NCBI GenBank assembly: GCA_964349945.1
Contig: CAYGIH010000002.1
Coordinates: 125,492-189,491 of the forward strand
Reading direction: 5' to 3'
DNA: 64,000 nt
DNA from: an uncultured Candidatus Saccharibacteria bacterium
GTDB taxonomy: Bacteria; Patescibacteriota; Minisyncoccia; Phycocordibacterales; Zambryskibacteraceae
This document shows, piece after piece, positions 14,032 to 45,004 of the stretch (positions are counted from its first letter, which is position 1; every line of letters begins with the position of its first letter). The notes under the pieces are model-generated. The model had not been told where the DNA came from. It ran no database searches and saw only the letters and a program-made list of their open reading frames with translations. The translations under genes were made by a program, and so were the position numbers.

Positions 14032-14714
14032 ATATTTGTATAGGTGAATATCCTAACACGATTATTGAGTATTGCAAAGTTTGGTATACTGGCCTTATGC
14101 AAATAGATTTTGTCTTTCAAATAGCAGTTCTAATCATGTCTGTGGTTATCCATGAGGTCAGTCACGGCTATATGGCTTATTATCTTGGTGATCCTACAGC
14201 CAAGTATCAAAATAGGTTAACTTTGAACCCATTTAGACATTTAGAGATTTTTGGTTCACTTATTGTGCCAGCTCTTTGTTATATGACCGGAGGATTTATT
14301 TTCGGTTGGGCTAAACCAGTGCCATATAACCCACATAACCTAAAGCCAGGGAGGTGGTCAGAAGCTCTTGTGGCTCTCGCTGGACCGGCATCCAATCTAT
14401 TTTTGGCTCTAGTTTTTGGAATATTTCTTCGTTTTTATGCCCTTGGAGCATCAGCCAACCCAGCAGTCATACATATCACCGCACTTATAGTTTTTATTAA
14501 CATTATCCTTATGGTTTTTAATCTTGTACCCATTGCTCCTCTTGATGGTTCAAAGATTCTTTATGCGATTTTCCCTGAAAGGATGTACCAATTCCGTGAA
14601 TTTTTCGAAAGATATGGATTTATGTTGGTTATAATCTTTATATTCTTTGGATGGCAATATGTTGCTCCGCTCGCCGGTGTATTCTTTAGATTGATAACTG
14701 GGGTGAATATTTAG
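14025..14714 (+). CDS. Peptidase M50 / site-2 protease-like membrane metalloprotease
   Basis: HEVSHG zinc motif and NLVPIAPLDGSKIL (LDG) motif. Multi-TM. Confidence 0.7.
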   Translation: MPYICIGEYPNTIIEYCKVWYTGLMQIDFVFQIAVLIMSVVIHEVSHGYMAYYLGDPTAKYQNRLTLNPFRHLEIFGSLIVPALCYMTGGFIFGWAKPVPYNPHNLKPGRWSEALVALAGPASNLFLALVFGIFLRFYALGASANPAVIHITALIVFINIILMVFNLVPIAPLDGSKILYAIFPERMYQFREFFERYGFMLVIIFIFFGWQYVAPLAGVFFRLITGVNI

Positions 14715-14776
14715 CTATAAGCTTGCGTTAATCCGTTCTTTTTAGTAGAGTATGGGTCTCCGTTTGGAGGTTTTTT

Positions 14777-15190
14777 ATGTCAACAATCAATCAGCTAGTC
14801 AAGAGAAAAAGAAGCAAAACTACTCGCAAATCAAAGGCGATTGCCCTTACTCGTGGCTTTAATACTATTAAAAACCGCCCAATCTACTTTAACTCTCCAT
14901 TCAAGCGTGGTGTTTGTACCAAGGTGACCACCAAGACTCCAAAGAAACCTAACTCCGCTGTTCGAAAGATTGCCCGTGTTCGTCTATCGAATGGCCAAGA
15001 AGTGACTGCCTACATCCCAGGAGAAGGACACAACCTACAAGAACACTCAGTGGTGGTTATCCGCGGAGGTCGTGTGAAGGACCTTGGAGTTAGATACACT
15101 ATTGTACGAGGACTCCTCGATGCTCAAGGCGTAGAGAAGAGACGACAGTCAAGAAGCCAATATGGAACTAAGAAGCCTAAGGCCAAATAA
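14777..15190 (+). CDS. rpsL: Ribosomal protein S12
   Basis: PTINQLV-like N-terminus and conserved PKKPNSA. One of the few native genes with a GGAGG SD. Confidence 0.95.
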
Positions 15191-15195
15191 TTTTT

Positions 15196-15666
15196 ATGCG
15201 AAGAAAACTCAAAGCCAAACCAAAAATAACCCCAGATTCAGTCTATGAATCAGAAAAAGTAGCGAAGTTTATTAACTACACCATGCTTGAAGGTAAGAAA
15301 ACTACTGCTCGAGGAGTAGTTTATAGAGCGCTTGATGAGATAAAGGAGAAGGCCAAGGTGACTGATCCTATGGAAATCTTTGAACTTGCTTTGAAGAACA
15401 CTGGTCCTACTATGGAAGTTCGTTCTCGAAGAGTTGGAGGTGCGAACTACCAAATCCCACGTGAAGTTCGCCCAGAGAGACGACAACAGCTATCTATGAA
15501 ATGGATTATTGAAGCTGCTCGAAGCAAGAAAGGCAAGCCAATGCATGAGAAACTCGCAGAAGAAATTATTTTGGCTTCAAACAATGAAGGGGATGCAGTG
15601 AAGAAGCGTGAGACTACGCACCGAATGGCTGAAGCCAACAAGGCCTTCGCCCACTTCGCTTGGTAA
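15196..15666 (+). CDS. rpsG: Ribosomal protein S7
   Basis: Conserved S7 sequence and operon position. Confidence 0.95.
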
Positions 15667-15703
15667 TTATTTATTAATATTGTTTTTTTAATTTGTTATT
15701 TAA

Positions 15704-17869
15704 ATGGAACGAGATTATCCACTAGAGAGAGTTAGAAACTTCGGTATCATTGCGCATATTGATGCGGGTAAAACCACAACTTCAGAGCGAGTGCTTTTTT
15801 ATACTGGTGCCCAACACTCAATCGGTGAAGTTCATGAAGGAGATACCACTACTGACTGGATGGAACAAGAGCGAGAGCGAGGTATCACCATCACCGCTGC
15901 GGCCATCACTTGTTTTTGGGCTCCTACATACTTGACCAAAGAGCAACACGAGAAGAAAGAAAATAAATATCGTTTTAATATCATCGATACCCCAGGGCAC
16001 ATCGACTTTACTGTAGAAGTGAAGCGTTCTCTCCGCGTGCTCGACGGTGCAGTTGTGGTTTTCGATGGTGTAGCTGGAGTAGAGCCTCAATCAGAAACAA
16101 ACTGGCGTTATGCAGAAGATGCCAAGGTGCCTCGCGTATGTTTCATCAACAAACTTGACCGAACAGGTGCATCTTTTGAACGTTCATACAAATCTATTTT
16201 GGACAGACTTTCAAAGAAAGCAGTTAGAATGCAAATCCCTATAGGAGAAGAAGATAAACATGAGGGAGTTGTTGATCTTCTAAAAATGAAGGCTTACTAC
16301 TTCGAAGGTAATATGGGTAATCAAGTGGTTGAGAAGGAAATCCCAGCAGAATATCTAGAAACTGCTACAAAATATCGTGCTGACCTCGTAGAAAGAATCG
16401 TAGAAAACGATGAGCACCTCATGAATGCTTACCTTGAAGGTAAGGAAATTTCTCTTGAAGCTCTAAAGGAAACTCTTCGTAAGGCAGTTATCACTAATAA
16501 AATTTTCCCTGTTTATGCTGGTTCAGCTTTGAAGAACAAAGGTGTTCAACTCGTCCTCGATGCAGTGGTTGAACTGCTTCCTTCACCTTTGGACATCCCT
16601 CCTGTTTCTGGTATTGACCCAAACACAGGACTTGAAATCCTTAGACACGCATCTGATTCTGAACCATTTTCAGCACTAGCCTTTAAACTTCAAGCAGACC
16701 CATTCGTTGGTCAGCTTACATTCTTCCGTGTGTATTCAGGAACAATTGAATCAGGAAGTTATATTTACAACTCAACTACAGGCAACAAAGAGAGACTTGG
16801 TCGTATTGTAAGGCTTCAGGCCAACGACAGAGAGGAAGTGAAAAAAGTTTATGCAGGAGAAATCGCCGCCGCAGTAGGCTTGAAGGAAGCCAAGACTTCT
16901 CATACTTTCTCTGATGAAAATTCTCCAATCATCCTCGACCAAATCACATTCCCTGAACCAGTTATTTCTCTCCGTATTGAACCAAAGACAAAAGCTGACC
17001 AAGAGAAAATGGGATTTGCATTGAAGAGACTTTCGGATGAAGACCCAACTTTCAAAATTAAATCAGATTCAGAAACTGGTGAGACAGTTATCATGGGTAT
17101 GGGTGAACTTCACTTAGAAATCCTTGTAGACAGAATGAAGAGAGAATTCTCTGTGGAAGCCAATGTAGGTAAACCTCAAGTGGCTTACAAGGAAACTATC
17201 CAAGGTGAAGCAGAAGTTGATAACAAATACATCAAGCAAACAGGAGGTAAGGGACAATACGGTCACGTACGAATCAAGATTAAACCTCTACCTAAATATG
17301 ATCCAGAAGAGAAAGTACCAAAGAATGCTCATAGGGAAGAAGGTTTCGAATTCATTGATGCTATTAAGGGAGGAGTTATCCCTCAAGAATTTATCCCTGC
17401 AGTAGAGAAGGGAGTGAAGGAAGCTATGGAACGTGGAATCCTCGCAGGCTACAAGATGGTAGATATTTCTTGTGAATTGAATTTCGGTTCTTCACACGAT
17501 GTGGACTCATCAGAAATCGCTTACAAGATTGCTGCCTCTCAAGCATTTCAAGAAGCGGCCAAGAAGGCTCGACCAGTTATCCTTGAACCTATTATGAAAG
17601 TAGAAGTAGTAGTACCTGAGAAGTTCATGGGAGACATCACTGGAAACCTTAGCGGTAAGCGTGGACAGATAGAAGCTATGGAAGACAGAAACGAACTCAA
17701 GGTGGTCCGAGCGATGGTGCCTCTTTCAGAAATGTTCGGATACGTCACCGCTCTTCGTTCTATGACCGAAGGTCGTGGTTCATCCACTATGGAGTTTGAT
17801 CACTATGCTATCGTTCCTCCAAACGTAGCCACAGCTATTATTGAGCAGAGAACAGGAGCAAAGGCTTAA
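15704..17869 (+). CDS. fusA: Elongation factor G
   Basis: G1 motif AHIDAGKTT, DTPGHIDF, 721 aa. Confidence 0.95.
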   Translation: MERDYPLERVRNFGIIAHIDAGKTTTSERVLFYTGAQHSIGEVHEGDTTTDWMEQERERGITITAAAITCFWAPTYLTKEQHEKKENKYRFNIIDTPGHIDFTVEVKRSLRVLDGAVVVFDGVAGVEPQSETNWRYAEDAKVPRVCFINKLDRTGASFERSYKSILDRLSKKAVRMQIPIGEEDKHEGVVDLLKMKAYYFEGNMGNQVVEKEIPAEYLETATKYRADLVERIVENDEHLMNAYLEGKEISLEALKETLRKAVITNKIFPVYAGSALKNKGVQLVLDAVVELLPSPLDIPPVSGIDPNTGLEILRHASDSEPFSALAFKLQADPFVGQLTFFRVYSGTIESGSYIYNSTTGNKERLGRIVRLQANDREEVKKVYAGEIAAAVGLKEAKTSHTFSDENSPIILDQITFPEPVISLRIEPKTKADQEKMGFALKRLSDEDPTFKIKSDSETGETVIMGMGELHLEILVDRMKREFSVEANVGKPQVAYKETIQGEAEVDNKYIKQTGGKGQYGHVRIKIKPLPKYDPEEKVPKNAHREEGFEFIDAIKGGVIPQEFIPAVEKGVKEAMERGILAGYKMVDISCELNFGSSHDVDSSEIAYKIAASQAFQEAAKKARPVILEPIMKVEVVVPEKFMGDITGNLSGKRGQIEAMEDRNELKVVRAMVPLSEMFGYVTALRSMTEGRGSSTMEFDHYAIVPPNVATAIIEQRTGAKA

Positions 17870-17875
17870 TTAATC

Positions 17876-17900
17876 AAAAAAACCGCTTCGGCGGTTTTTT
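17876..17900 (+). terminator. Intrinsic terminator after fusA (AAAAACCGCTTCGGCGGTTTTTT)
   Basis: GC stem CCGC-TTCG-GCGG followed by a T-run. Confidence 0.7.
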
Positions 17901-17942
17901 GAATGGTGTATAATTGATTCATTAATAAATATACATAAAAAT

Positions 17943-18332
17943 ATGGCTGGAAATAAATATGAACCAACCCCAGATGAATTAGCCGATGGGGAAGAAAATT
18001 TAACTGAATACCAGACTCAACTATCAAGAGATAGAAGAGAAATGATGAAAGGTGTTGACTTGGAGCTATTAAAAAAATGTAATTTAGAACTTAATGCTAA
18101 CGGTATGGCGATTATGGGTACGATAGATGGGACTGCAATCAGACTCAGGCTTACACCAGAGGGAGGGTATGGAGGAGGAATAGGGGATCCAGAAGTATTT
18201 TTAGACAATGATATGGCGGAGAAACTTTGGCAAAAATACTATCCGATTGCAAAAATAATAAAACATGATGGTGAGATGGAAACAACCGGAGAGCAAGCAA
18301 AACTTGAGGCGTCTAGATTGTTAAGTTTATAA
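17943..18332 (+). CDS. Hypothetical protein (native GC)
   Basis: 129 aa ORF preceded by a TATAAT box. No SD, as is typical of native genes here. Confidence 0.5.
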   Translation: MAGNKYEPTPDELADGEENLTEYQTQLSRDRREMMKGVDLELLKKCNLELNANGMAIMGTIDGTAIRLRLTPEGGYGGGIGDPEVFLDNDMAEKLWQKYYPIAKIIKHDGEMETTGEQAKLEASRLLSL

Positions 18333-18402
18333 TAGTAAAATAAGTTTTCAACAAAAAAACGGCTTAACAAGGCTGTTTTTTGTTATATTTGAGGCTAAAT
18401 GC

Positions 18403-18431
18403 TTGACATTTAATACTGACTGTGCTATTAT
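18403..18431 (+). promoter_or_regulatory. Near-consensus sigma70 promoter TTGACA-N17-TATTAT driving high-GC cassette gene
   Basis: TTGACA at 18403-18408, 17-nt spacer, TATTAT at 18426-18431. GGAGG SD at 18475-18479. Confidence 0.6.
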
Positions 18432-18485
18432 ACACAAGTACAGATGTCCTTTCCCACTACAACGGCCTAGCGCCGGAGGTATCCC

Positions 18486-19106
18486 GTGAACCGGTTTGAG
18501 AAGCTCCTGAACGCCCTGTTGGCGAAGATCGAGTCCGTCCGCGCCCTGTGCGCTGACATCCCGACCGACGTGGCGACGAAGGTGAGCGAAGAGCTCGCCC
18601 ACGTCGTGAAGGTTCTGCGTGACCCGCAGGCCATCACGACCGGTCGCAACGTCGGCTACGTCGGCGCCCTCGCGGAGGAGGCTCTGAGGGATCTGCGCTC
18701 GAACGAGCGTCGGTTCCTCATCACCCTCGGCACGATCAACGGTCTGCGAGAGCGGATCGGTGCGCTTCACCCGCAGACGCCCATGAAGATGGGGGTCTCG
18801 GACGCCATCACGCTCTACGACATCTCGCGCCAGAATCATGACACGGGGACCGCTGTGCTCCGCACGGAGTACGACGGCATCCTGTTCCTCATGGAGGAGG
18901 CCGAGACCCAGTCCCGGCTTCTGCGCTCGCGCGAAGCGGACGAGCGGATTCGCGAGACCATCGCGAACGGCGTCGTCGGCGCGATCAAGCCGGCCAAGCG
19001 CGGTCGGGCTGCAGGCAAGAGACTTGCTGATGCTGAACGTCGTTCCCAGATGAAGGGCAAGACGAACGGCGGTGGCAAGAACAACCGCAAGCAGAAGACG
19101 GCGTAG
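18486..19106 (+). CDS. High-GC (about 65%) hypothetical protein with basic C-terminal tail; GTG start
   Basis: GGAGG, 6 nt, then GTG. Private promoter and terminator. Composition is foreign to the genome. The antisense ORF 18348-19274 is judged to be a GC artefact. Confidence 0.55.
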   Translation: MNRFEKLLNALLAKIESVRALCADIPTDVATKVSEELAHVVKVLRDPQAITTGRNVGYVGALAEEALRDLRSNERRFLITLGTINGLRERIGALHPQTPMKMGVSDAITLYDISRQNHDTGTAVLRTEYDGILFLMEEAETQSRLLRSREADERIRETIANGVVGAIKPAKRGRAAGKRLADAERRSQMKGKTNGGGKNNRKQKTA

Positions 19107-19107
19107 T

Positions 19108-19168
19108 CGGGGTTCGCCCCACGAAAAGTTCCCACGGATTCCCGTGAGCACTATTCGTGGGGCTTTTT
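19108..19168 (+). terminator. Compound hairpin terminator (GGGGTTCGCCCC ... CCCCACGAA/TTCGTGGGG + T-run)
   Basis: Nested GC hairpins ending in CTTTTTG. Confidence 0.55.
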
Positions 19169-19224
19169 GTTTTCCTAAAAATGTGTAATATAGCCAGAGG
19201 CCCCATAACCAGAGGAGTATGCGC

Positions 19225-19575
19225 ATGTATAATGGTCCGGATTCTGATGTGCAAGGAGTGCCAGTAGTTCCCACTGCATCAGGCCTGTCGAAGGTTCATC
19301 ACAGCGATCTTACGGGTCTTACCCAACCAACGATCAGAGAAGTGGATGCCATGGTGGCCCACTTCAAGGGATGGAAGATGCCATCCCTTGTGGTCGCTCT
19401 TGCTGAGACGGGTTTCGTACATCGTGCGGCATGGTCGCACGGGGAAACCAAGGTTACTCAGGATGAACTCGATCGCGCGAATCGCTGTCTCTCGAAGCAC
19501 ATCACTGGTCAAATCAGGATGAATCGGGAGTACATCTGGTTTGCCAAGACGGGCGGATCAAATCCGGTGAACTAA
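19225..19575 (+). CDS. Mid/high-GC hypothetical protein, second gene of the island
   Basis: GAGGAG SD 7 nt upstream of ATG 19225. Followed by terminator AGGCCCC-AAC-GGGGCCTTTTTT. Confidence 0.45.
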   Translation: MYNGPDSDVQGVPVVPTASGLSKVHHSDLTGLTQPTIREVDAMVAHFKGWKMPSLVVALAETGFVHRAAWSHGETKVTQDELDRANRCLSKHITGQIRMNREYIWFAKTGGSNPVN

Positions 19576-19578
19576 CCC

Positions 19579-19602
19579 AAGGCCCCAACGGGGCCTTTTT
19601 TC
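19579..19602 (+). terminator. Intrinsic terminator
   Basis: GGCCCC/GGGGCC stem plus T6. Confidence 0.65.
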
Positions 19603-19840
19603 TTTAATGAATATTGCCCATTGGATATTGACTATTTTAGTAGTTTTGCGTAAGATAGCCCTTACGCGTCATGTGCCGTTTTTAATTTGCTCTTTGAGAT
19701 CTTTTCTTAATAGACCGAATGAAAATATGGCTTTATTACGCGCTCAATCTAATTCTAGGTCGAAGAGAGCAAATGTTCTCGCGCGCTCCCTTCGTTTTAG
19801 AATTTACCCTTATTTAATTTAATAATAATTATTTACTCAA

Positions 19841-21031
19841 ATGGCAGAATTTAATCGTTCAAAGCCACACCTCAACGTAGGAACCATTGGACACGTTGAC
19901 CACGGCAAGACAACCCTTACAGCAGCAATTTTGAATGTGCTTCACCGCGCAGGCAAGACAGCTACAGTAAAATCAGTAGGTGATATTGATAAGAGTCCTG
20001 AAGAAAAGGCTCGAGGTATTACTATTTCTCTTTCACACAGCGAATACGAGTCAGATGCTCGTCACTACGCTCACGTGGATGCTCCCGGCCACGCCGACTA
20101 CATTAAAAACATGATTACTGGTGCCGCTCAAATGGACGGTGCTATTCTCGTGGTAGCAGCAACAGACGGGGTGATGCCTCAAACTCGTGAACACATCCTA
20201 CTTGCAAAGCAAGTTGGAGTGCCAAAGATTATTGTGTTCTTGAACAAGTGTGACATGGTTCCTGATCCAGAACTCATCGACCTCGTTGAAGAGGAAATCA
20301 GAGAATTGCTCACCAAATACGAATTCGACGGTGCAAATGCTCCTATCATTCGTGGCTCAGCCCTAAAAGCTCTTGAAGCTACAGGTACTGATGATGAATG
20401 GTCAAAGAAAATCCTTGACCTCGTCAACGCCTTGGACACTTACTTCCCAATCCCTGTTCGTGAAGTAGATAAGCCATTCCTAATGCCTATCGAAGACATC
20501 TTCTCTATTGAAGGTCGAGGTACAGTGGTTACTGGTCGTATTGAAAGAGGTATCTGTAAGATTGGTGAAGAAGTAGAAATTGTTGGTATTGAAGCTACTT
20601 CAAAGACAACCATTACTGGTATTGAAATGTTCAACAAACAACTCCAAGAAGGACAAGCTGGAGACAATGCCGGAATCTTGCTCCGTGGTGTGAAGAAAGA
20701 AGAATTGCATCGAGGACAAGTGCTTGCTAAACCAGGAAGCGTAACTCCTCATACAGAGTTCACAGCAGAAGTTTACATCTTGAAGAAGGAAGAAGGGGGA
20801 AGACACACTCCATTCTTCACTGGATACAAGCCTCAGTTCTATGTCAGAACAACTGACGTGACTGGAGAAGTAACTCTTGCTGAAGGAGTAGAAATGGTTA
20901 TGCCTGGAGATACAGTGACCTTCAAAGTTAAGCTCGTAGCACCAGTGGCCCTTGAGGAGCAGACTCGTTTCGCTATCCGTGAAGGAGGCAAGACAGTAGG
21001 TGCCGGAGTGGTAACAAAGGTTATCGCCTAA
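19841..21031 (+). CDS. tuf: Elongation factor Tu
   Basis: [19 protein letters not shown] motifs. 396 aa. Confidence 0.95.
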
Positions 21032-23104: not shown

Positions 23105-23944
23105 ATGAAGAAATACAGACCAACATCTCCATCAAGACGACAAACTTCAAACGTTGAATTCAAAAAATTCACCACTACAAACGAACCTTTGAAGTCTTTA
23201 ACCAAGGGTTTTAGACGAGCCAATGGACGCAACAATACAGGTAGAATCACCACTCGACACAAAGGGGGAGGACACAAAAGACTTTTTAGAGAAATAGACT
23301 TTACATACAACAAACTCAATGTGCCTTTCACTATTAAAACTGTTGAATACGATCCAAATCGTTCTGGTTTCATTGGACTTGTGGCTTATAAGGATGGAGA
23401 GAGACGATATGCACTTCTACACAAAGGAGTTAAAATTGGGGAAACATTTGTAGCCGGAGAAAATGCTCCTTTGGTGCCTGGGAACAAACTACCTCTAAAG
23501 AATATCCCTGTTGGAACATTCGTATACAACGTAGAACTAAAGCCAAATGGTGGAGCTCGCATCGCTCGCTCTGGAGGAAACTATGTAGAAGTGAGTGCGA
23601 AGGATGGTGGTTATGTAGATGTGAAGATGCCTTCATCAGAAGTTCGAAAAGTTATTGAAACTGCTTATGCAACTATCGGTGAAGCTTCAAATGATGAGAA
23701 CCGTCTTACAAATCTAGGTAAGGCAGGGAGAAATAGATGGTTAGGAGTTCGTCCAACTGTCCGAGGTACTGCTCAAAACCCAGTAGACCACCCACATGGA
23801 GGAGGAGAAGGAAGACAAGGAAGAGGACGCAGACGAGCAATCTCTGTTTATGGGAAGCCAACAGGCAAGGGACAAAAATCTCGACGCTCAAAGAAATATT
23901 CAAACAAACATATTGTCAGAAGACGAAAAGTTGGCAAGAAATAA
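23105..23944 (+). CDS. rplB: Ribosomal protein L2
   Basis: Conserved L2 (GGGHK, HPHGGGEG). Confidence 0.95.
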   Translation: MKKYRPTSPSRRQTSNVEFKKFTTTNEPLKSLTKGFRRANGRNNTGRITTRHKGGGHKRLFREIDFTYNKLNVPFTIKTVEYDPNRSGFIGLVAYKDGERRYALLHKGVKIGETFVAGENAPLVPGNKLPLKNIPVGTFVYNVELKPNGGARIARSGGNYVEVSAKDGGYVDVKMPSSEVRKVIETAYATIGEASNDENRLTNLGKAGRNRWLGVRPTVRGTAQNPVDHPHGGGEGRQGRGRRRAISVYGKPTGKGQKSRRSKKYSNKHIVRRRKVGKK

Positions 23945-23949
23945 AATCA

Positions 23950-23974
23950 AAAATCCCCACTCGGGGATTTTTTG
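23950..23974 (+). terminator. Intrinsic terminator after rplB (AAATCCCC-ACTC-GGGGATTTTTT)
   Basis: Perfect 6-bp GC stem plus T-run. Unexpected here, because rpsS normally follows directly. Confidence 0.7.
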
Positions 23975-24025
23975 TAACACACTTCGGGGTTATACTTTCA
24001 ACAGACACTTAACCGAGGATTGATT

Positions 24026-24268
24026 ATGAGTGAAGCTCAAGAAAAAAATCCTTGGATTAGGTTTGTATATAGTCCATGCGATGATGATCATCGAGTAGTA
24101 GTTGATTTTGTGAACCAACATGAACTGCCGGTCATACTTGATTCAAATGAATGCGCTCCACATCCAGAACTTCGGGTGAATCATGGAGAGATTCTGACTG
24201 GCGCTGATAAAATCATAAACCACTTGAAGGCACAGTTTGCCCACCTCATCACCCCAATGCCTAGTTAG
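24026..24268 (+). CDS. Small thioredoxin-fold (GST-N/glutaredoxin-like) protein
   Basis: GAGGA SD 6 nt before ATG. FVYSPCDDDHRVVVDFVNQHELPVILD resembles the GST-N beta-alpha-beta core. Weak call. Confidence 0.35.
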   Translation: MSEAQEKNPWIRFVYSPCDDDHRVVVDFVNQHELPVILDSNECAPHPELRVNHGEILTGADKIINHLKAQFAHLITPMPS

Positions 24269-24400
24269 GCATTTTTTTGTTTATATTGACAAATATTATA
24301 CATATTGTAATGTTTCTTTGTTTCCGATAGGTGAAGAACACTTTACTCATGGAGCAGATCTCCTTGAGCCACAACGGCGGAACAGTTCTTTGGGGGTTCT

Positions 24401-24799
24401 ATGAGTGAAATTGCTGGATTCATCGGGTGGTGCATCATTGTCATGCTATTTGGTAGCGTTATTATCATGATCCTCGAGATGATCAAAAACTGGTTTACTC
24501 AGAACTCTCGGTTCATTGATGAGTTTGTTGATCAAGGAACGGTCAACTTCAAGATCAGGAATCTCGCTATCGAACTCAAGGATCTCTTTGATCAGCAGAT
24601 CGAAGAGCAAAAGAGGTTTTCTGGGGACTCTCTCCATCAGCGCGAGCACAACATCAATTCGTTTTCTGAGCTTGTTTCTGAAAAGAAGGGGAAGTTTTGG
24701 AAGGTGGTCAATCTGGCCAAGAAGGTCGGCTTCGACACTCCCAGCACCATCGAAGAAGCGCTCGTATTGCCGATTGTCTTTGAAGAAGACGACGATTGA
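24401..24799 (+). CDS. Hypothetical N-terminally membrane-anchored acidic protein
   Basis: TTGACA-type promoter at about 24287, long leader, GGGGG before ATG, one TM helix, terminator at about 24822-24850. Confidence 0.45.
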   Translation: MSEIAGFIGWCIIVMLFGSVIIMILEMIKNWFTQNSRFIDEFVDQGTVNFKIRNLAIELKDLFDQQIEEQKRFSGDSLHQREHNINSFSELVSEKKGKFWKVVNLAKKVGFDTPSTIEEALVLPIVFEEDDD

Positions 24800-24996
24800 T
24801 CTAGTAATCGTCATTATGTCTTTGGCCATCCGTAAGGGTGGTTTTTTCATTGACAAAAACCTAAAATCCTATAAAGTATCCGCATAAGGTCAAAGACAAG
24901 AGGCGAACAATAAGTCCTCTCGAGACTACTCTCTCTGCAATAGCGGACGTTGAGACCTTATATAGGTCGATTTTTTTAGCCAAAAAACAAAACCAA

Positions 24997-25485
24997 ATGG
25001 CAATATCAAGAACCAAAAAAGGAGAAATAATTGATAAGCTCCAAGGAGCGCTCAAGGGTGCCAAGTCTCTTGTTTTCGTGAACTTCCATGGTTTAAAAGT
25101 TTCTGATGCCACCGCGATGCGCCGAGCCCTCAAGGGCGAAGGTGTCTCATACGCAGTGACTAAGAAAAGTTTAACCAAAAGAGTTTTAGCAGATGAGAAG
25201 TTTGAAGGTACGCAACCAGAGCTCACAGGTGAACTGGCAATGGCTTGGTCAGAAGACCTCATTGCCCCAGCCCGTGGAGTTTACGGCTTCCAAAAAAAAT
25301 TCCCAGAAGGTATTCAAATCCTCGGTGGAGTTTTCGAAGGACGATACATGGATAAGAAGGAGATGGAAGGCATCGCCACCATCCCAACTACAGATGTACT
25401 CCGTGGAATGTTTGTGAACATCATCAATTCTCCAATACAGCGTTTCGCTATCGCGCTCAATGAGGTAGCAAAAACTAAGAACTAA
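24997..25485 (+). CDS. rplJ: Ribosomal protein L10
   Basis: Conserved L10 sequence. About 145-nt structured leader upstream. Confidence 0.9.
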   Translation: MAISRTKKGEIIDKLQGALKGAKSLVFVNFHGLKVSDATAMRRALKGEGVSYAVTKKSLTKRVLADEKFEGTQPELTGELAMAWSEDLIAPARGVYGFQKKFPEGIQILGGVFEGRYMDKKEMEGIATIPTTDVLRGMFVNIINSPIQRFAIALNEVAKTKN

Positions 25486-25498
25486 TTAATTATAAAAT

Positions 25499-25861
25499 AT
25501 GACACAAGAACAAATCATCGAAGCTGTAGAGAAGTTGAGTGTACTAGAACTCAACACTCTAGTGAAGGCTATTGAAGAAAAGTGGGGTGTTTCAGCTACA
25601 GCCGTAGCGGCCGCAGGACCTGCAGCAGCCGGTGAAGCAGTAGAAGCCAAGTCAACAGCAGATGTAGAACTTACAGACGCTGGTGCCAATAAGATTGCAG
25701 TTATCAAGGTAGTGAAGGAAGTGCTCGCCCTAGGCCTCAAAGAAGCCAAGGATCTCGTAGATGCAGCACCTTCAATGCTTAAAGCAGGAATGAAGAATGA
25801 TGAAGCCGCAGATCTCAAGAAAAAGATTGAGGAAGCAGGCGGAAAGGTTACTTTAAAGTAA
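25499..25861 (+). CDS. rplL: Ribosomal protein L7/L12
   Basis: Ala-rich hinge and conserved C-terminal domain ([18 protein letters not shown]). Confidence 0.92.
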
Positions 25862-25881
25862 TAAATCATTTGTTCCGATTC

Positions 25882-25906
25882 AAAAAACCGCTTAGGCGGT
25901 TTTTTG
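25882..25906 (+). terminator. Intrinsic terminator after rplL (AAAAAACCGCTTAGGCGGTTTTTTG)
   Basis: Near-identical to the fusA terminator. Confidence 0.7.
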
Positions 25907-25963
25907 TTGACACTGAAACTCACAAGAGTAATCTATCTATAGACGGTCCCCCAAGGAGGAACG

Positions 25964-26221
25964 GTGCGTGCCACCCTAATGGATGTAAGGATCTTGTGGC
26001 TCGTCTGGTTGTATGAGAACAGACGGCCTGCGCGGAGTAAGACGCGCAAGGATCTGAACGCGCGTTTCCTCGGAATGTTCAAGGAAATTGCGAAGATAAC
26101 CAGGAAGAAGATTGGCTTTCCTGGTCGACCAGACGACGAGGTGCCTCTGGACGAGAAGTCGGATGCCCTCTACTGTCGAATGGAAAAAGAGTGGGACAGA
26201 GTCATGTCCCGCAAGAGGTGA
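25964..26221 (+). CDS. High-GC small basic hypothetical protein (85 aa), GTG start
   Basis: TTGACA at 25907-25912. AAGGAGG SD at 25953-25959, then GTG. Terminator AAACCCTATCGCTTTGATAGGGTTTTT follows. Confidence 0.45.
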   Translation: MRATLMDVRILWLVWLYENRRPARSKTRKDLNARFLGMFKEIAKITRKKIGFPGRPDDEVPLDEKSDALYCRMEKEWDRVMSRKR

Positions 26222-26288
26222 AACCCTATCGCTTTGATAGGGTTTTTACTTACTGGCATTCCTTATAGATTGTGAGTAGAATGGCCGT

Positions 26289-26849
26289 ATGACAAAGTCA
26301 GTATCCAATATCTTCGGCGGTGAAGCCAAGGTGAAAATAATGCGTTTATTCATATTTAATCCAGGCACTATTTTCGAAGCTTCAGCTGTATCAGATAGAA
26401 CCCAAGAAAGACGTGCGGTAGTAGCCAGAGAAATTCGCAATTTAATGAAGGGAGGTTTACTCAGAAAAAAAGGTAAGGGTTATACATTAAATTATGATTA
26501 TCCTTTTGTTGAAGCCTTGAATAGTTTCCTCATAGATGCGAGTCCTATTTCAGAAAAGGAAATAATCAAAAAGGTTTCTCGTGCAGGAACGATGAAGCTC
26601 ATTTTAATTTCTGGGGTATTCCTTCATGATCCAGAAGCCAGAGTTGATATGCTCGTAGTGGGGGACCATCTAAAGAAAGGTGTTTTGGTTCAAGCTATTA
26701 GTTCTATTGAAGCCATGCTCGGCAGGGAAATTCGCTATGCATCGTTTGAAACGGCTGATTTTCAATATAGATTAGGTCTCTATGACAAGCTCGTTCGAGA
26801 TATCCTCGACTTCAACCACAAGAAAATCCTTAATAAATTAGGAGTTTAG
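26289..26849 (+). CDS. Hypothetical protein (possible winged-helix N-terminal domain)
   Basis: 186 aa at native GC. No confident family assignment. Confidence 0.4.
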   Translation: MTKSVSNIFGGEAKVKIMRLFIFNPGTIFEASAVSDRTQERRAVVAREIRNLMKGGLLRKKGKGYTLNYDYPFVEALNSFLIDASPISEKEIIKKVSRAGTMKLILISGVFLHDPEARVDMLVVGDHLKKGVLVQAISSIEAMLGREIRYASFETADFQYRLGLYDKLVRDILDFNHKKILNKLGV

Positions 26850-26981
26850 CTTTATTTATTATCCACAAACCCTATACAATCATTGTTTTTATGGTTTTTG
26901 GCGGTGTATAATAAAGCATACCCCTAAAAAGAGGTAACATTAATAATAAGTGCATTTGCACAGACCCTCAGTCAAGAACAT

Positions 26982-27671
26982 ATGTTGATTAATACATGGG
27001 GACAAGTTCTCACACTTTCATTCCAGAATCTTTGGATGGGAGTTGTAGCCTTTGTTCCACAGTTAGTTGTCGCAATTATTATCCTCATCCTCGGATGGCT
27101 CATCGGCGCATTATTTGGCCGAGCTGTCTGGCAGGTGTTCCGTTCTCTAAGAGTTGATGAAGCTCTAAGACGAGCAGGTTTTGAAACATTCCTTCGCCGA
27201 GGAGGACTAAACCTCGATTCTGGTGCTTTCATTGGCGGACTTGTTAAGTGGTTTGTGATCCTTGTTTTCCTTATTGGATCATTCAACGTTCTAGGTCTCA
27301 GCCAAGTTAACGCATTCATTAGTGATGTTGTTCTTCTTTACCTCCCTCGCGTAATTGTCGCTGCCCTCATCCTACTTGTAGGAGGAGTAGTTGGTGATGT
27401 TATCGATCGAGTAGTAGTCACAGCAGCTAAGACAGCTGAAATTCGTTCAGCACACTTCGCTGGTTCACTTTCAAAGTGGGCAGTTTGGGTATTTGCTATC
27501 CTTGTCGCGCTTAGTCAGCTCGGCATCGCGGCAGCCTTTAGTCAAACTCTCTTCACAGGTATTGTTATAGCTATCTCTCTTGCACTAGGCCTTTCATTTG
27601 GTCTTGGAGGTCAAGAAGCAGCGGCTCGATTTATCGAGAAGCTACGTGGAGAGATGAGTGGGAATAAGTAA
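26982..27671 (+). CDS. Conserved-TM-helix repeat membrane protein (MscS-related TM_helix family-like)
   Basis: Four similar amphipathic/TM repeats (LVVAIIILILGWLIGALFGRAV..., VIVAALILLVGGVVGDVIDRVV...). Confidence 0.5.
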   Translation: MLINTWGQVLTLSFQNLWMGVVAFVPQLVVAIIILILGWLIGALFGRAVWQVFRSLRVDEALRRAGFETFLRRGGLNLDSGAFIGGLVKWFVILVFLIGSFNVLGLSQVNAFISDVVLLYLPRVIVAALILLVGGVVGDVIDRVVVTAAKTAEIRSAHFAGSLSKWAVWVFAILVALSQLGIAAAFSQTLFTGIVIAISLALGLSFGLGGQEAAARFIEKLRGEMSGNK

Positions 27672-27752
27672 AAAGAAGTATTATAGCTAGATAATACTTC
27701 AACTTGCATAAAAGGGCCCTATTTAGGGCTCTTTTATGTATTATAAATGTCC

Positions 27753-27781
27753 TTGACTTTATACATCAAGTATGCTATTAT
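27753..27781 (+). promoter_or_regulatory. Consensus sigma70 promoter TTGACT-N17-TATTAT
   Basis: TTGACT at 27753-27758, 17-nt spacer, TATTAT at 27776-27781. Preceded by terminator AAAAGGGCCCTATTTAGGGCTCTTTT. Confidence 0.6.
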
Positions 27782-27835
27782 AGACAGGTACGCTCTTTAG
27801 TTATACTCCCTTTAACGTATTACCACGGAGTAGCC

Positions 27836-28408
27836 ATGACGGTTGCGATGATGCAGGACCAGAGCTCGTCCGAAGGCCTTTGCCTCAAGGACGTGAACAC
27901 GGTGCTGGTGAATTTCAACTTCACCAACCCGCGAGTTGTGCCGCAGGGTCTGCGACATGTCGAACGCAAGAGCGAGCGCGAGCTCCTCGAGCGTCGCAAG
28001 CAGCAGGGCGTTGGTACCGGCCATCAGGTCGTGAACAATGCTCAGCAGACGCAGGTCGCGATGCTCCGCAAGGGTCTCTCGTCGAATGGCTTCCACCTCG
28101 TGGACAGCCACACGACCGAGATCGCGCGTCCGGGCCGCCAGAAGAAGTACCGGGTCGTGCTGCAGTTCCGGCGTATGGAGGCCGGCGAACAGGCTCCTGA
28201 GATTCCTTCGGAAGCTCTCGCCGATCTGCGCAGTCTCGCCACTGACGCTGTCTGGTCCGGCCACGTCTGGTCGAACCCGAACGGCGTGGCGGCGGTGGAC
28301 CTTGTCCAGCGCCAGCCGGGCACCCTTCCGAAGCATGCGTTCGTCACCCGCAAGGGGTGGATCGTGGCGGAGCCGGTGAGCCAGCTCGTTGCGGAAGACG
28401 GGGAGTAA
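27836..28408 (+). CDS. High-GC (about 63%) hypothetical protein, 190 aa
   Basis: GGAG SD at 27827-27830, ATG at 27836. Terminator at 28436-28462. The antisense ORF 27812-28480 is rejected as a GC artefact. Confidence 0.55.
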   Translation: MTVAMMQDQSSSEGLCLKDVNTVLVNFNFTNPRVVPQGLRHVERKSERELLERRKQQGVGTGHQVVNNAQQTQVAMLRKGLSSNGFHLVDSHTTEIARPGRQKKYRVVLQFRRMEAGEQAPEIPSEALADLRSLATDAVWSGHVWSNPNGVAAVDLVQRQPGTLPKHAFVTRKGWIVAEPVSQLVAEDGE

Positions 28409-28435
28409 TTCGCACAAGGGACTGTTCTGGGTCCA

Positions 28436-28462
28436 AGGTCGTCTGAAAAGGCGACCTTTTTT
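28436..28462 (+). terminator. Intrinsic terminator (AGGTCGTC-TGAAAAG-GCGACCTTTTTT)
   Basis: Hairpin plus T6. Confidence 0.65.
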
Positions 28463-28473
28463 CTTATAATAGT

Positions 28474-28502
28474 TTGACAATACGCCTTGATTTCTATACT
28501 AT
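28474..28502 (+). promoter_or_regulatory. Consensus promoter TTGACA-N17-TACTAT directly upstream of rpsS, with 5'-UTR hairpin AAGCTC-TCTCTC-GAGCTT (28511-28528)
   Basis: Seen directly in the sequence. A private rpsS promoter is unusual. Confidence 0.5.
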
Positions 28503-28539
28503 ATCTTCCTAAGCTCTCTCTCGAGCTTCTTTATTTCTC

Positions 28540-32029: not shown

Positions 32030-32058
32030 TTGACAATACACCTCAAACGGTGTATTTT
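32030..32058 (+). promoter_or_regulatory. Promoter TTGACA-N17-TATTTT with palindrome ACACC-N6-GGTGT (32038-32053) in the spacer; second palindrome GGTGT-GTG-ACACC (32085-32097) over SD/start codon
   Basis: Seen directly in the sequence. Operator-like dyads overlap the promoter and the translation start. Confidence 0.5.
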
Positions 32059-32089
32059 CTTTTGAGAAAAACCTAACGCCGGAGGGTGT

Positions 32090-32710
32090 GTGACACCAAA
32101 CATTAGTTTTTGGATGCAGGTGTTGGGTGGTACTTTTTACACTCTGAATAAGATCTTCTTCAGCTTTAAGGAGAGAAGTAGTGGAGAAAGAGCGCGTCAG
32201 TGGAGAATCTGGGCCTGGATTGTGTATATCATCGGCTTGGCTCCCTGGCTCGTGATTCTCTCACACGAGAGGAATTGGATGGTGACCTTCGTCGAAGCGG
32301 GCGGAGCTCCTGCAATGTTTCTTGGGCTCATCCTTGCTTTTCGTAGGGCTGATGATCATCCAAGTGAACAGAACAAAAGGCTCGAGAACTTTTTCGACAA
32401 GTTTGCCCGAGTTGCAGCGGTTCTCGGTATCGCCTTTAGTCTTTATGATGTTGGCTTGATGAAGTCGTGGACACAGTGGGCTGAGCTTGGAGTGACGATT
32501 GGTTTCTTGGTTGGGACATATCGTTTGGCCAAGGATCATTTGGATGGTTACCTCTGGTTCTTACTCATGAATTTTTCCTGCTGTGTGCTCATGAACCTAC
32601 AAGGATACAAGTGGCTGGCATTTCAGCAGTTGTTGTCCCTTGTGTTTGTCCTCGATGCTTACAAGGTGAAGAAGTACAGACCCACAGATCCATATTGGTA
32701 TGTTCCTTGA
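32090..32710 (+). CDS. High-GC (about 52%) polytopic membrane protein, GTG start; family unclear (weak PnuC-like features)
   Basis: GGAGG at 32081-32085, GTG at 32090. 5-6 TM helices, Trp-rich (WRIWAW, ERNWMV). Confidence 0.5.
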   Translation: MTPNISFWMQVLGGTFYTLNKIFFSFKERSSGERARQWRIWAWIVYIIGLAPWLVILSHERNWMVTFVEAGGAPAMFLGLILAFRRADDHPSEQNKRLENFFDKFARVAAVLGIAFSLYDVGLMKSWTQWAELGVTIGFLVGTYRLAKDHLDGYLWFLLMNFSCCVLMNLQGYKWLAFQQLLSLVFVLDAYKVKKYRPTDPYWYVP

Positions 32711-32735
32711 CCGACGATGTTGTCGGTCTTTTTAT
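32709..32735 (+). terminator. Intrinsic terminator GACCGAC-GATGTT-GTCGGTCTTTTT
   Basis: Perfect 7-bp stem plus T5. Confidence 0.7.
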
Positions 32736-32763
32736 TGACTATATTTTGCTATAAGGTTATATT
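32735..32763 (+). promoter_or_regulatory. Consensus promoter TTGACT-N17-TATATT
   Basis: TTGACT at 32735-32740, TATATT at 32758-32763. Confidence 0.6.
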
Positions 32764-32803
32764 TTGTCGAGATTTTTTGTTCACATGTACATTTGGAGGA
32801 AGG

Positions 32804-33097
32804 ATGCCGAAACGTTTTGTGATTCTTAGCAACCCGAGCGAGTTTGAACTCATCATGTCGCTCTGGGACAGGAAATCTGGTCCGAGATCAGTACGTTTTG
32901 ACTGTATCGAGAACATTGAAGACGATGCAGACAAGGAAGTGACTTTCGAAGTTCACATCCTTCTCCTGAGGCGGGATCGTACGAACTCTCATGAATGGAC
33001 CTTCAGGGGAGTAATTGAGGAGACCAACGAGGAAGTTAGTGGTCTTTGTTCCACTGATTCTGAAGATCGAGGAGAGTACGTTCTCATCTTTGCTTAA
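32804..33097 (+). CDS. Mid-GC small acidic hypothetical protein (98 aa)
   Basis: GGAGG at 32795-32799, ATG at 32804 (MPKRFVILSN...). Terminator at 33098-33121. Confidence 0.5.
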   Translation: MPKRFVILSNPSEFELIMSLWDRKSGPRSVRFDCIENIEDDADKEVTFEVHILLLRRDRTNSHEWTFRGVIEETNEEVSGLCSTDSEDRGEYVLIFA

Positions 33098-33152
33098 CCA
33101 CGCTCTGGTCGTGGTTTTTTTATATAAAAAATCCGCCTAGTTTCAGGCGGAT
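33098..33152. terminator. Back-to-back terminators (+: ACCACG-CTCTGGT-CGTGGTTTTTTT; -: ATCCGCCT-GAAACT-AGGCGGATTTTTT)
   Basis: Convergent cassette genes end here. Confidence 0.6.
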
Positions 33153-33334
33153 GTTGCGTGGACTGGGACGGGCTTAGGTTCTTGTATTTCGGATTCTTCT
33201 TGATCTGGGAAGCAGATCATCGCGAAGCCTTCAGCAGCAGCTTCCAAAAAGAGGATAGCATCCTCTGCGCTACTGGTTAGGGCTTTCATGAGGTCTCTTA
33301 CTTCCTGATCATCTTCGGACCAAGCAGGCGCCAT
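33143..33334 (-). CDS. Small acidic hypothetical protein (63 aa)
   Basis: Minus-strand promoter TTGTCA (33397-33402)-N17-TATATT (33374-33379). GGAG SD 5 nt before ATG at 33334. The longer ORF to 33511 is rejected. Confidence 0.45.
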   Translation of the reverse strand: MAPAWSEDDQEVRDLMKALTSSAEDAILFLEAAAEGFAMICFPDQEESEIQEPKPVPVHATSA

Positions 33335-33458
33335 CACGTCTCCATGTGTTGAGGAACTGGGGGGTCCAGGCTCAATATAGCTAAAATCACTAGGTTTGAC
33401 AAGATAGGGCTTTATGATAAGCTGAATTACCAGCTTTTCGAAGCTATTTTTATTCAAT

Positions 33459-33644
33459 ATGGCCAAAACGTCAGTTAAAGCTAGAGCAAGAAAAACACCC
33501 AAGTTCAGCACTCGGGCTACTCATCGTTGCTTTAAATGTGGCCGAGGACGGGGCTATATGAGGGATTTCGACCTTTGCCGTATATGTTTTAGAGAATTGG
33601 CTAATGAGGGCAAAATCCCAGGGATAAAGAAATCTTCTTGGTAA
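33459..33644 (+). CDS. rpsN: Ribosomal protein S14 (zinc-binding type Z)
   Basis: 61 aa with CxxC...CxxC (CFKCGR...CRICFRE). Confidence 0.9.
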
Positions 33645-43020: not shown

Positions 43021-43128
43021 TTGAAGTGTCTGAAATAAATTTACTCCATATAGGATAAAAAATCATTTCAAATTGTGTATAACAAAAAAGCCCCGACAGA
43101 AGCCAAGGGCTAATCTGCGGGGCTGAGC

Positions 43129-43359: not shown

Positions 43360-43448
43360 GGGAACCTCGTTTGTGTGAGAGGACGAAGAGTATCTAACTA
43401 GTATTAGATACCTACTTAGACCATTTGTCAAGTAATAAAAAACCCGCA

Positions 43449-43697: not shown

Positions 43698-43815
43698 GTG
43701 ACACCTCGTCGAGCGGGTTGAACAGTCTTTTATTACCTTACGCTTAATATAAAAAATGTAAAACAGAAAAGCCCCGACAGAAGCCGAAGCAAATCTGTGG
43801 GGGCATGGAGAAGAA

Positions 43816-44905: not shown

Positions 44906-45004
44906 CCTAAAACATTTTTGTATACAAAAATGTTCGGGCGATCGATTTGTAAACAAATCGATTTAGCCATAAAGCATCCTTGTATAAATGTTCGGGCGAA
45001 CAAA

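Follow-up and report, generated by a model that had tools for sequence, protein, structure and literature searches.

The 64-kb window of contig CAYGIH010000002.1 that is analysed here, and to which all coordinates refer, contains between fusA and tuf a GC-rich block (18403–19597) of two self-contained promoter–gene–terminator units, which carry the open reading frames (ORFs) p206 (18486–19106) and p116 (19225–19575). The flanking genes are fusA (15704–17869), a 721-amino-acid (aa) ORF for EF-G, and tuf (19841–21031), and all four genes lie on the plus strand. EF-G is 55–88% identical to its counterparts in 80 genomes and places the host in the Patescibacteria, amid Paceibacteria/Kaiserbacteria-like and 'Minisyncoccia' metagenome-assembled genomes (MAGs). 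The best GTDB representative by EF-G is L035, at 88% protein identity, where L-numbered names here and below denote related genome or contig loci that were compared. Our analysis confirms that the block is real and that each of its two genes is a self-contained unit encoding an unknown protein, restricted to a small group of Patescibacteria.

The composition of the block is sharply set off from its surroundings. In 200-nucleotide (nt) windows the GC fraction is 0.30–0.44 up to 18400, rises to 0.63–0.67 over 18500–19100, stands at 0.51–0.555 over 19100–19600 and falls to 0.36–0.39 beyond 19600. Across the 64 kb, 300-nt windows have a mean of 0.403 with a standard deviation of 0.056, so the peak of the block at 0.66 lies about 4.6 standard deviations above the mean; the sole other stretch at this level is found at 27.8–28.5 kb, where a third orphan gene, isl2, is located. 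A preliminary description of this DNA had pointed to a GC-rich island here, and the claim is borne out, with GC up to 0.66 against a window mean of 0.40, a compositionally extreme value. Every ORF and signal that it listed is present at its coordinates, and its view of autonomous transcription units between fusA and an independently promoted tuf also holds, given their own promoters and terminators. The chimeric assembly that it raised as a possibility is ruled out, since contigs from the Logan assemblies of runs ERR3094292 and ERR3094302, assembled independently, are 100% identical to 16976–19921 and cover both junctions; the exact 206-aa p206 protein is encoded on both. The region contains six promoter-like sites, as compared with 2.0 ± 1.5 in shuffled sequence, and among the eight TTGAC-type sites in the 64 kb that score at least 10/12, two are the p206 and isl2 promoters.

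The p206 cassette opens with the predicted promoter TTGACA-N17-TATTAT (18403–18431, plus strand), which carries a TG extension and has 11/12 matches. The same TTGAC-N17-TGnTAnnnT architecture precedes p206-family, isl2-family and neighbouring cassette genes at 11 other loci, and the promoters of p206 and isl2 in the window and of the L100 gene share TGCTAyTATA...ACAnnGTAC(A)G. The 5′ untranslated region (UTR; 18432–18485, plus strand) contains a pyrimidine-rich stretch and a short GGCC-type 4-bp hairpin that abuts the Shine–Dalgarno (SD) sequence GGAGG (18475–18479). This arrangement is conserved in L003, L096, L093 and L095; by eye, the GGCT/AGCC of L096 would preserve pairing, and RNAalifold recovers the stem with GC pairs kept in 5/5 sequences and a single double change overall, which hints that it may be a functional structure. 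The ORF starts with GTG 6 nt past GGAGG, encodes 206 aa and has a GC fraction of 0.647, or 0.85 at third codon positions (GC3). It is followed by a nested-hairpin terminator, GCCCCACGAA...TTCGTGGGGC and then a T run (19116–19163, plus strand), of a type that recurs after p206 homologues, after the unrelated genes p195 of L087 and p208b of L090, and after p229 of L095; across families and loci this cassette terminator reads GCCCCACGAAAG...CTTTCGTGGGGCTTTTGTTTT, and a pyrimidine-rich UTR with a GGCC-type hairpin next to the SD likewise recurs. Judged from the sequence, the cassette signals argue for strong, autonomous transcription, and expression of p206 would be driven by a strong dedicated promoter, without dependence on the operons nearby.

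The p206 protein combines a predicted helical-bundle body with a conserved, strongly basic tail of probable disorder. Residues 1–160 have a pI of 6.0, while residues 161–206 have a pI of 12, contain 14 K+R per 46 residues and end in KQKTA, an instance of the family motif K-x-K-[ST]-A. AlphaFold2, run with 19 sequences, predicts seven helices at a pLDDT of 88.3, with residues 162–206 at low confidence; read from the secondary-structure list alone, the modelled fold would comprise two three-helix bundles and a long helix. A fold search with p206 returned generic helical bundles only, and inspection of the protein revealed neither a signal peptide nor a membrane segment. A short allele of 136–138 aa occurs in L096 (9451–9867) and in P0011, and retains the N-terminal bundle and the basic tail with the second bundle absent; the tail and the first bundle may constitute the functional core. 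On the opposite strand, a 308-aa ORF (18348–19274) provides a stop-free frame across the whole of p206 in the window, in L003 and in L096. It was rejected as an overlapping gene; the frame is broken in L006, L093 and L095, and its openness follows from the absence of TTA, CTA and TCA codons (P = 0.07–0.36 per gene).

A spacer of 118 nt that includes the strong intrinsic terminator and a separate −10 element connects p206 to p116. The −10-type element, TG-TAATAT without a −35 (19184–19191, plus strand), is a putative promoter conserved as TGTGTAATATAG in L096 and L006. The p116 ORF of 116 aa (GC 0.527, GC3 0.55) has the SD sequence GAGGAG at 19212–19217, and the gene callers of the source assemblies likewise give 116 aa. 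Its terminator (19579–19597, plus strand) consists of a stem of 8 pairs, 6 of them GC, and a T run behind it. Homologues of p116 are found at 71% (P0026), 66% (P0027) and 62% identity; L003 has one, and L006 a weaker one. Upstream of the block lies o129 (17943–18332, plus strand), a 129-aa ORF for an acidic protein (pI 4.6) that has no SD, a GC fraction of 0.385 and a GC3 of 0.285; a TATAAT occurs upstream at 17909–17914, and a 12-pair stem followed by a T run serves as terminator (18354–18381, plus strand). No relatives of o129 were found in family libraries or in metagenome and viral scans, and it is missing from the closest relative, L096, where 17874–18351 is an indel. As such, o129 is a separate, later and strain-specific addition of native composition that stands outside the GC-rich cassettes. 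At its place L006 has a different, PH-domain-like membrane ORF; thus the spacer also gathers strain-specific genes.

The spacer into which the cassettes are set has its own regulatory signals at both ends. fusA ends in an intrinsic terminator (17877–17900, plus strand) built from the perfect 10-bp inverted repeat AAAAAACCGC-TTCG-GCGGTTTTTT with a 4-nt loop, and tuf has the predicted promoter TTGACT-N17-TAAGAT (19628–19656, plus strand) together with a GCGTAAG/CTTACGC palindrome. The promoter is followed by a leader of about 185 nt that runs to 19840 on the plus strand and is native, conserved in relatives and outside the island. Because tuf has its own promoter and leader, the spacer is normally open in this clade of Paceibacteria. 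Collinearity between L035 and the window extends over 10.9–27.1 kb, and the fusA–tuf spacer of L035, only 433 nt of ordinary GC, includes a recognisable homologous tuf promoter and leader, so that the leader blocks are conserved in an island-less genome. Relative to L096 the leader is 93.5% identical overall and 96–100% identical within 19650–19840, above the conservation of tuf synonymous sites. Its consensus fold contains 6 pairs with double changes. In the predicted structure GCGT pairs with ACGC to form an outer stem and TTGAGA with TCTCAA to form a hairpin (TTTGAA/TTCAAA in L093), and an inverted repeat lies over the tuf −10 box in every species compared, with shifting register. The leader has no Rfam match and may be an undescribed leader RNA or operator.

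The second GC-rich stretch of the window, the isl2 cassette (27753–28458; GC up to 0.67), is organised in the same manner. Its predicted promoter, TTGACT-N17-TATTAT (27753–27781, plus strand), shares TGCTATTATAsACArGTAC with that of p206, and isl2 itself (27836–28408, plus strand) is a 190-aa orphan gene with GC 0.64 and GC3 0.81 directly upstream of rpsS, ended by its own terminator (28435–28458, plus strand) and followed by a separate rpsS promoter (28474–28502, plus strand). The isl2 region is found on an 18.8-kb contig of ERR3094292 and on one ENA contig, and homologues of 51–54% identity always lie immediately upstream of rpsS. Here the S10 operon is broken between rplB (23105–23944) and rpsS (28540) by an interruption of about 4.6 kb (23945–28539) that also contains rplJ (24997–25485), rplL (25499–25861), a 186-aa gene (26289–26849), a mechanosensitive (MS)-channel-like gene (26982–27671) and small ORFs, an arrangement common to L035, L087, L090, L095 and L096. 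One ORF of 85 aa in this gap (25964–26221) has a GC3 of 0.67 and is conserved in L096. In L097, a 501-aa gene of native GC (14526–16031) follows the MS-channel gene at the place of isl2, on a contig that stops short of rpsS; what occupies the rpsS-proximal slot thus varies among near neighbours.

Relatives of p206 are few and closely confined. A word-indexed search of 5.8 × 10^9 clusters returned two relatives at 59% and 55% identity, and a full hidden Markov model search of 1.84 × 10^9 representatives returned 19 proteins, which define a family of about 200 aa with the N-terminus MNRFEKLL and a C-terminal basic tail. The same spacer holds p206 and a second small gene in at least five related lineages. 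The order is fusA–p202–p116–tuf in L003–5 (fusA 95% identical at the protein level), fusA–other ORF(s)–p205–p116-like in L006 (97%), fusA–p208–p100–tuf in L093/94 (93%), fusA–p198–p88–tuf in L103/104, and fusA–p138–p114–tuf in the NCBI MAGs L096–98 (98% over the fusA C-terminus), where p138 is the short allele. In some relatives the second gene is replaced by unrelated genes, namely p100 in L093 and p88 in L103. Other members sit elsewhere: L095 has fusA–p115–tuf and, in its rplB–rpsS gap, p229 downstream of the MS-channel gene, L087 has MS-channel–p209–p195–isl2-like–rpsS, and L100–102, contigs from Hainich groundwater, have p229–groES–groEL next to an oppositely oriented secG. Every member with a readable context thus occupies a Patescibacteria-like chromosomal spacer upstream of a heavily used housekeeping operon (tuf, rpsS or groES). 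None of the 80 fusA loci of GTDB species representatives carries p206 or p116, which makes these rare, clade-restricted orphan families, and scans of GTDB representatives and JGI contigs with the p206 pattern found no match. By hhalign and BLASTP, isl2, L090 p208b and L087 p195 were rejected as hidden p206 relatives. p206, p116 and isl2 are three undescribed protein families. The AGNOSTOS study reports, in general terms, many lineage-specific unknown genes in Patescibacteria (PMC9132574). A description of GC-rich orphan genes in their ribosomal clusters was not found in the literature.

The unusual composition of these genes resides in their codons. GC fractions at the first, second and third codon positions are 0.65, 0.44 and 0.85 for p206 and 0.70, 0.41 and 0.81 for isl2, as compared with about 0.55, 0.38 and 0.27–0.43 for host genes; p116 is only moderately GC-rich (0.59, 0.44 and 0.55). 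The GC excess of p206 therefore falls almost wholly in third positions, i.e. is synonymous, with A 0.03, C 0.44, G 0.41 and T 0.12 there, against about A 0.32, C 0.2, G 0.15 and T 0.32 for fusA and tuf together. CGG is used 6 times in p206 and in 0/188 Arg codons of the host elongation factor and ribosomal protein genes, CTG is used 9 times against 5/179 in the same host genes, and 13/13 Lys codons of p206 are AAG. For 90 non-overlapping ORFs of the window the mean GC3 is 0.36 with a standard deviation of 0.11.

The same third-position composition is found in family members in other hosts. GC3 is 0.79 in L096 (neighbours 0.33–0.38), 0.73 in L093 (neighbours about 0.50), 0.77 in L095 (about 0.53), 0.82 in L103 (0.56), 0.76 in L099 and 0.85 in L100, where the neighbours are at 0.20–0.29. 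The L100 member is about 25% identical to p206 and has a near-equal third-position composition (A 0.04, C 0.43, G 0.41, T 0.11). The GC-rich trait of the family is in this way held across hosts of 38–51% GC, with a partly lower GC3 in L003 (0.61) and L006 (0.56), where C3 is down and T3 is up. Unrelated genes in like cassettes are GC3-rich as well (isl2 homologues 0.59–0.62, L087 p195 0.69, L090 p208b 0.77), and other spacer genes, namely o129, the MS-channel gene and the 186-aa gene, keep native composition. The p206-like p209 of L087 has a host-like GC3 of 0.47; it is a degenerate copy in which both the basic tail and a dedicated terminator are missing. Composition tracks cassette type, not location.

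The plus-strand frames are coding and under purifying selection. Nonsynonymous to synonymous rate ratios (dN/dS) are 0.15–0.46 for p206, about 0.2 for p116 and 0.18–0.28 for isl2, with fusA and tuf at 0.03–0.06; differences among homologues concentrate at third positions, and the dN of cassette genes is 5–10 times that of fusA. Comparison with L096 shows flanks that are 87–88% identical at the nucleotide level, and in 50-nt windows the island is 50–82% identical while the tuf leader is 96–100% identical. A mosaic with a sharp breakpoint, with 87% identity from 18945 onward, was considered and withdrawn, as the windowed alignment gives 50–82% throughout the block. The dS to L096 is 1.07 for p206 and 1.24 for p116, and that of host genes is 0.29–0.85 in the ribosomal cluster and 1.1–2.2 outside it; the cassette values are inside the host range and compatible with co-descent. 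Among 65 same-amino-acid codons of p206 and its L096 homologue, the third position differs in 31, and 13 of these 31 differences are C↔G exchanges, as compared with 14/801 in host genes (Fisher P = 2 × 10^−13). These synonymous differences mean that third positions have turned over heavily, and yet GC3 is 0.79–0.85 in both lineages. A two-state amelioration model with a host equilibrium GC3 of 0.34 (our own calculation) needs an ancestral GC3 of about 1.07 at a conservative 0.2 synonymous changes per site and lineage, and a value far above 1 at the genes' own dS. Since an ancestral GC3 above 1 is required, neutral amelioration of a vertically inherited foreign gene is excluded, which leaves either a force that holds GC3 high in situ or re-import from a GC-rich pool.

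Other small cassettes and RNA genes lie elsewhere in the window. Three further stand-alone small cassettes occupy 43050–44150 on the minus strand: an 81-aa membrane ORF (43816–44061; GC 0.55, GC3 0.77) has a perfect TTGACA-N17-TATAAT ahead of it at 44132, an 82-aa ORF lies at 43449–43697, and a small membrane ORF that ends at 43129 is listed with 106 aa and possibly has about 75 aa from an internal TTG. Two of their terminators are nearly identical (GCCCC.CAGATT...CTGTCGGGGCTTTT), and their UTRs resemble those of p206 and isl2. The rplE–rpsH gap (32030–33511) is occupied by a promoter at 32030, a 206-aa GTG-start membrane ORF (32090–32710; GC3 0.55), a 126-aa ORF (32717–33097) and a 122-aa ORF on the minus strand (33143–33511). 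A tRNA-Ile with anticodon TAT lies at 49419–49493 on the minus strand, and tmRNA lies at 44512–44906, also on the minus strand, with an unusually long predicted tag peptide (ANKTVARISPYFGVNDFQFAYARA).

Searches for known families and mobile elements gave a uniformly negative picture. Pfam, PHROGs and PADLOC had no match to o129, p206, p116 or the antisense ORF, NCBIfam gave 0 families for o129, p206, p116 and isl2, and profile searches of the PDB with all three families returned nothing below E = 0.1. A fold search of BFVD gave a best E of 0.3 and no match, scans of IMG/VR for p206, o129, p116 and isl2 found none, and neither tblastn against INPHARED nor searches of phage and plasmid records gave a match. 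Rfam returned from the region, at E ≤ 1, only chance matches of eukaryotic microRNA and small nucleolar RNA type. A J-domain or HscB co-chaperone was considered for p206, prompted by the member upstream of groES and by weak single-member Pfam matches, and rejected: DnaJ scored 18 bits against a cutoff of 27.8 over 20 residues, HSCB_C scored 14.9 against 22.1, and the conserved loop of the family is L[RK]DP, not HPD. Per-member Pfam matches to DnaJ, HSCB_C, Imm3, Mt_ATP-synt_B and TMP_4 fall below cutoffs at inconsistent positions and were deemed chance.

We consider it probable that the block and its relatives are resident, vertically inherited and autonomously expressed orphan cassettes of a narrow Paceibacteria clade, whose GC-rich, A3-poor codons are actively maintained. 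The pair at 18403–19597 would then be long-resident in this spacer rather than a fresh foreign insert. By its sequence signals each cassette is a complete transcription unit, in which a promoter of sigma-70 consensus type is followed by a short structured 5′ UTR that carries a strong SD, then by a single small ORF, and finally by an intrinsic terminator. From a GC3 that stays high across hosts despite near-saturating synonymous change, the composition appears to be maintained and not a decaying scar, and we infer both vertical descent and active upkeep; candidates for the non-neutral force that would keep GC3 are biased gene conversion and selection, the latter acting either on the composition of the mRNA or DNA or on the use of rare codons. 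Several observations weigh against this interpretation. L035, with fusA at 88%, has no island, and 0/80 representative fusA loci carry the cassettes, so that cassettes have been gained or lost within a narrow clade. The closest host, L096, has the short 138-aa allele, only 49% identical to p206, and its p114 resembles the L003 protein more (72%) than that of the window (67%); agreement between the gene trees and the host tree is imperfect, and an exchange of alleles would account for this too. The sole sampled family copy at host-like GC is one degenerate gene, which leaves room for an unsampled GC-rich reservoir. Finally, the 5′ UTR (GC 0.56) and the inter-cassette spacer (GC 0.51) are also GC-rich, and with such non-coding parts a regional process fits at least as well as codon-level selection.

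Some of these points bear directly on recurrent import, in which the cassettes would evolve in an unsampled reservoir of high GC, be it a plasmid, a virus or a GC-richer member of the Paceibacteria, and would repeatedly displace chromosomal alleles by homologous recombination via the conserved flanks, the fusA 3′ end and the tuf leader; their GC would then mirror the reservoir and not selection in the host. Partly incongruent allele trees, the 206- versus 138-aa polymorphism between the two closest genomes and the GC-rich non-coding parts are what such exchange would leave, as is a block at 50–82% identity to L096 bounded by flanks at 86–100%; unrelated genes that take this slot (L087 p195, L090 p208b and L095 p229) share a terminator type, as if genes were swapped within a scaffold, and L096 encodes a ComEC-type competence gene. 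However, viral contigs, BFVD, phage and plasmid records, JGI contigs and GTDB representatives hold no trace of a reservoir, the contexts that could be read are chromosomal and of Patescibacteria type, the dS of the island to L096 stays within the host range, as for co-descent, and promoter and UTR are host-like and conserved in place, all of which renders import rather unlikely. The origin favoured by the preliminary description, recent acquisition of an island that came from a donor with about 65% GC, broke up the str operon and might be a toxin–antitoxin (TA), abortive infection (Abi) or phage module, is very improbable. It would account for the extreme local GC, for a GC3 of 0.85 typical of a ~65%-GC genome, for the absence from L035 and the 80 species representatives and for two small adjacent genes without known function. 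The premise that fusA is normally followed directly by tuf does not apply in this phylum, where gaps of 68 nt to >5 kb at about 50 loci with both genes in view make a split str operon the rule. Nor is the insertion recent, given that p206/p116 pairs occupy the same spacer in L096–98, L003–5, L006, L093/94 and L103/104, i.e. the same site in at least five related lineages at a protein divergence of 40–60%. That the same island in relatives would mark an old native insertion, as had been proposed, agrees with those five lineages and not with the nearest GTDB representative, L035, which has no block. Only 3 of the 5.8 × 10^9 clusters and 19 of the 1.84 × 10^9 representatives matched, and no homologue from a GC-rich organism appeared in either set; among the marks of a recent island, atypical composition was found, and absence from close relatives and an identifiable donor were not. 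The GC jump of more than 25 points is indeed extreme, but the gene family shows it as a conserved trait in all hosts examined, and it does not mark foreign origin. For a TA, Abi or phage origin, family, defence, phage and fold searches gave no signal, and the genes are separately promoted with a terminator between them. A type II TA pair was rejected on the 118-nt spacer with its terminator, unlike TA operons, and on the lack of a match at E ≤ 1 in Pfam, NCBIfam and PADLOC; a known defence or Abi system was rejected on 0 PADLOC families for o129, p206, p116 and the antisense ORF. A prophage remnant was rejected since PHROGs, IMG/VR, BFVD and INPHARED were without match and neither an integrase, att-type repeats nor a tRNA site is present: flanking direct or terminal repeats do not exceed short chance matches, the nearest tRNA or tmRNA is >24 kb away and 17.8–19.9 kb contains no integrase-sized ORF. 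An integron cassette was likewise rejected, as the ORFs are not promoter-less but individually supplied with consensus promoters, end in plain intrinsic terminators and have no integrase nearby, although no dedicated attC model was run.

A different possibility is that p206, p116 and isl2 act together in an undescribed conflict system (defence, anti-defence or epibiont–host interaction) and evolve in an arms race. This would fit a dN 5–10 times that of flanking genes, the allele length polymorphism, the slot-wise replacement of genes and the co-occurrence of the families, with p206-like, p195 and isl2-like genes in tandem in L087 and, in L095, a 115-aa gene at the p116 position and a p206-like gene in the rplB–rpsS gap. 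Against it stand a dN/dS of about 0.2 with no gene-level positive selection, the lack of a PADLOC match and the predicted separate transcription of the genes, and we give the idea little credence. Artefact in any form, whether a chimera, a GC-rich non-coding RNA or spurious ORFs that include the antisense 308-aa ORF, has next to no probability: sharp composition boundaries and the stop-free antisense frame over p206 might suggest it, but three assemblies agree, the period-3 signal is strong with a GC3 of 0.85 in the plus-strand frame, changes are dominated by third positions, the protein alignment extends family-wide, no Rfam match exists, and the antisense openness is explained by the missing codons and broken in three homologues. 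It is also conceivable, if improbable, that the GC-rich, A3-poor codons are themselves functional and that p206, isl2, p116, L087 p195, L090 p208b and the small membrane ORFs, unrelated orphans with common consensus expression signals beside the EF-Tu, ribosomal protein or GroES operons, form a 'compositionally insulated' regulon of AT-rich Patescibacteria. Their translation would depend on CGG, CTG, NNG and NNC codons that abundant genes of the cell do not use, so that output would be a readout of how the translation apparatus or rare tRNAs are faring, or would be gated by them; in a radical version, the codons of the cassettes may be suited to expression inside a GC-rich cell with which the epibiont is partnered. 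As for the role of p206, its basic tail, the strength of its predicted promoter and its constant placement beside translation and chaperone operons are the grounds for a tentative suggestion, possible rather than probable, that it is an abundant nucleic-acid-binding accessory protein, associated with the ribosome, RNA or the nucleoid via its tail.

Atypical GC is routinely read as recent transfer, and here it appears to be an inherited and maintained property of a gene family, i.e. a counter-example. If resident and maintained, the cassettes offer a natural system for asking what holds synonymous sites far from the mutational equilibrium of a genome. Three families, probably strongly expressed, lie inside what is the best-conserved gene cluster of these ultra-small, uncultured bacteria, and p206, p116 and isl2 are cheap and specific targets for metatranscriptomics, metaproteomics and structural work. 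Should they prove to be ordinary accessory proteins with GC from an unsampled donor pool, the finding shrinks to a well-documented orphan islet.

A comparison with known systems helps to place the cassettes. Like accessory islets in the spacers of core genes, the integration or recombination 'hot spots' of bacterial chromosomes, they are variable, lineage-restricted genes of atypical composition between two highly conserved core genes, with content that differs among relatives (o129 only here, the PH-domain-like ORF in L006, nothing in L035). Unlike such islets, the block has no mobility genes, tRNA or repeats, and the pair persists through species-level divergence. Bacterial islets gained by transfer usually have a higher AT content than their host, whereas this block exceeds its host by 25 points of GC and keeps that excess. 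Horizontally acquired genes reportedly ameliorate, as in the model of Lawrence and Ochman, and the cassettes resemble ameliorating foreign genes in their non-host codon composition and in the lower GC3 of L003 and L006, which looks like partial amelioration. They differ in that the window and L096 copies hold a GC3 of 0.79–0.85 after about one synonymous change per site, and in that third positions have the same make-up in a homologue of 25% identity whose genome has 38% GC. Type II TA pairs share the layout of two small adjacent genes on the same strand; the present genes are separate units with a terminator between them, match no known toxin or antitoxin family, and the second is swapped for unrelated genes in L093 and L103. 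Small basic nucleic-acid-binding proteins with disordered Lys/Arg tails include chlamydial Hc1, the tails of mycobacterial HupB and the extensions of ribosomal proteins. p206 is similar in its predicted helical body, its pI-12 tail of probable disorder, its strong independent promoter and its place among translation genes, and dissimilar in having no sequence or specific fold similarity to them, in evolving fast and in its narrow clade. In Streptomyces, the bldA/TTA-dependent genes are regulated through codons that are rare for their genome. p206 is comparably rich in codons that the highly expressed genes of its host avoid, but its bias is global over G/C-ending codons and is not that of one codon.

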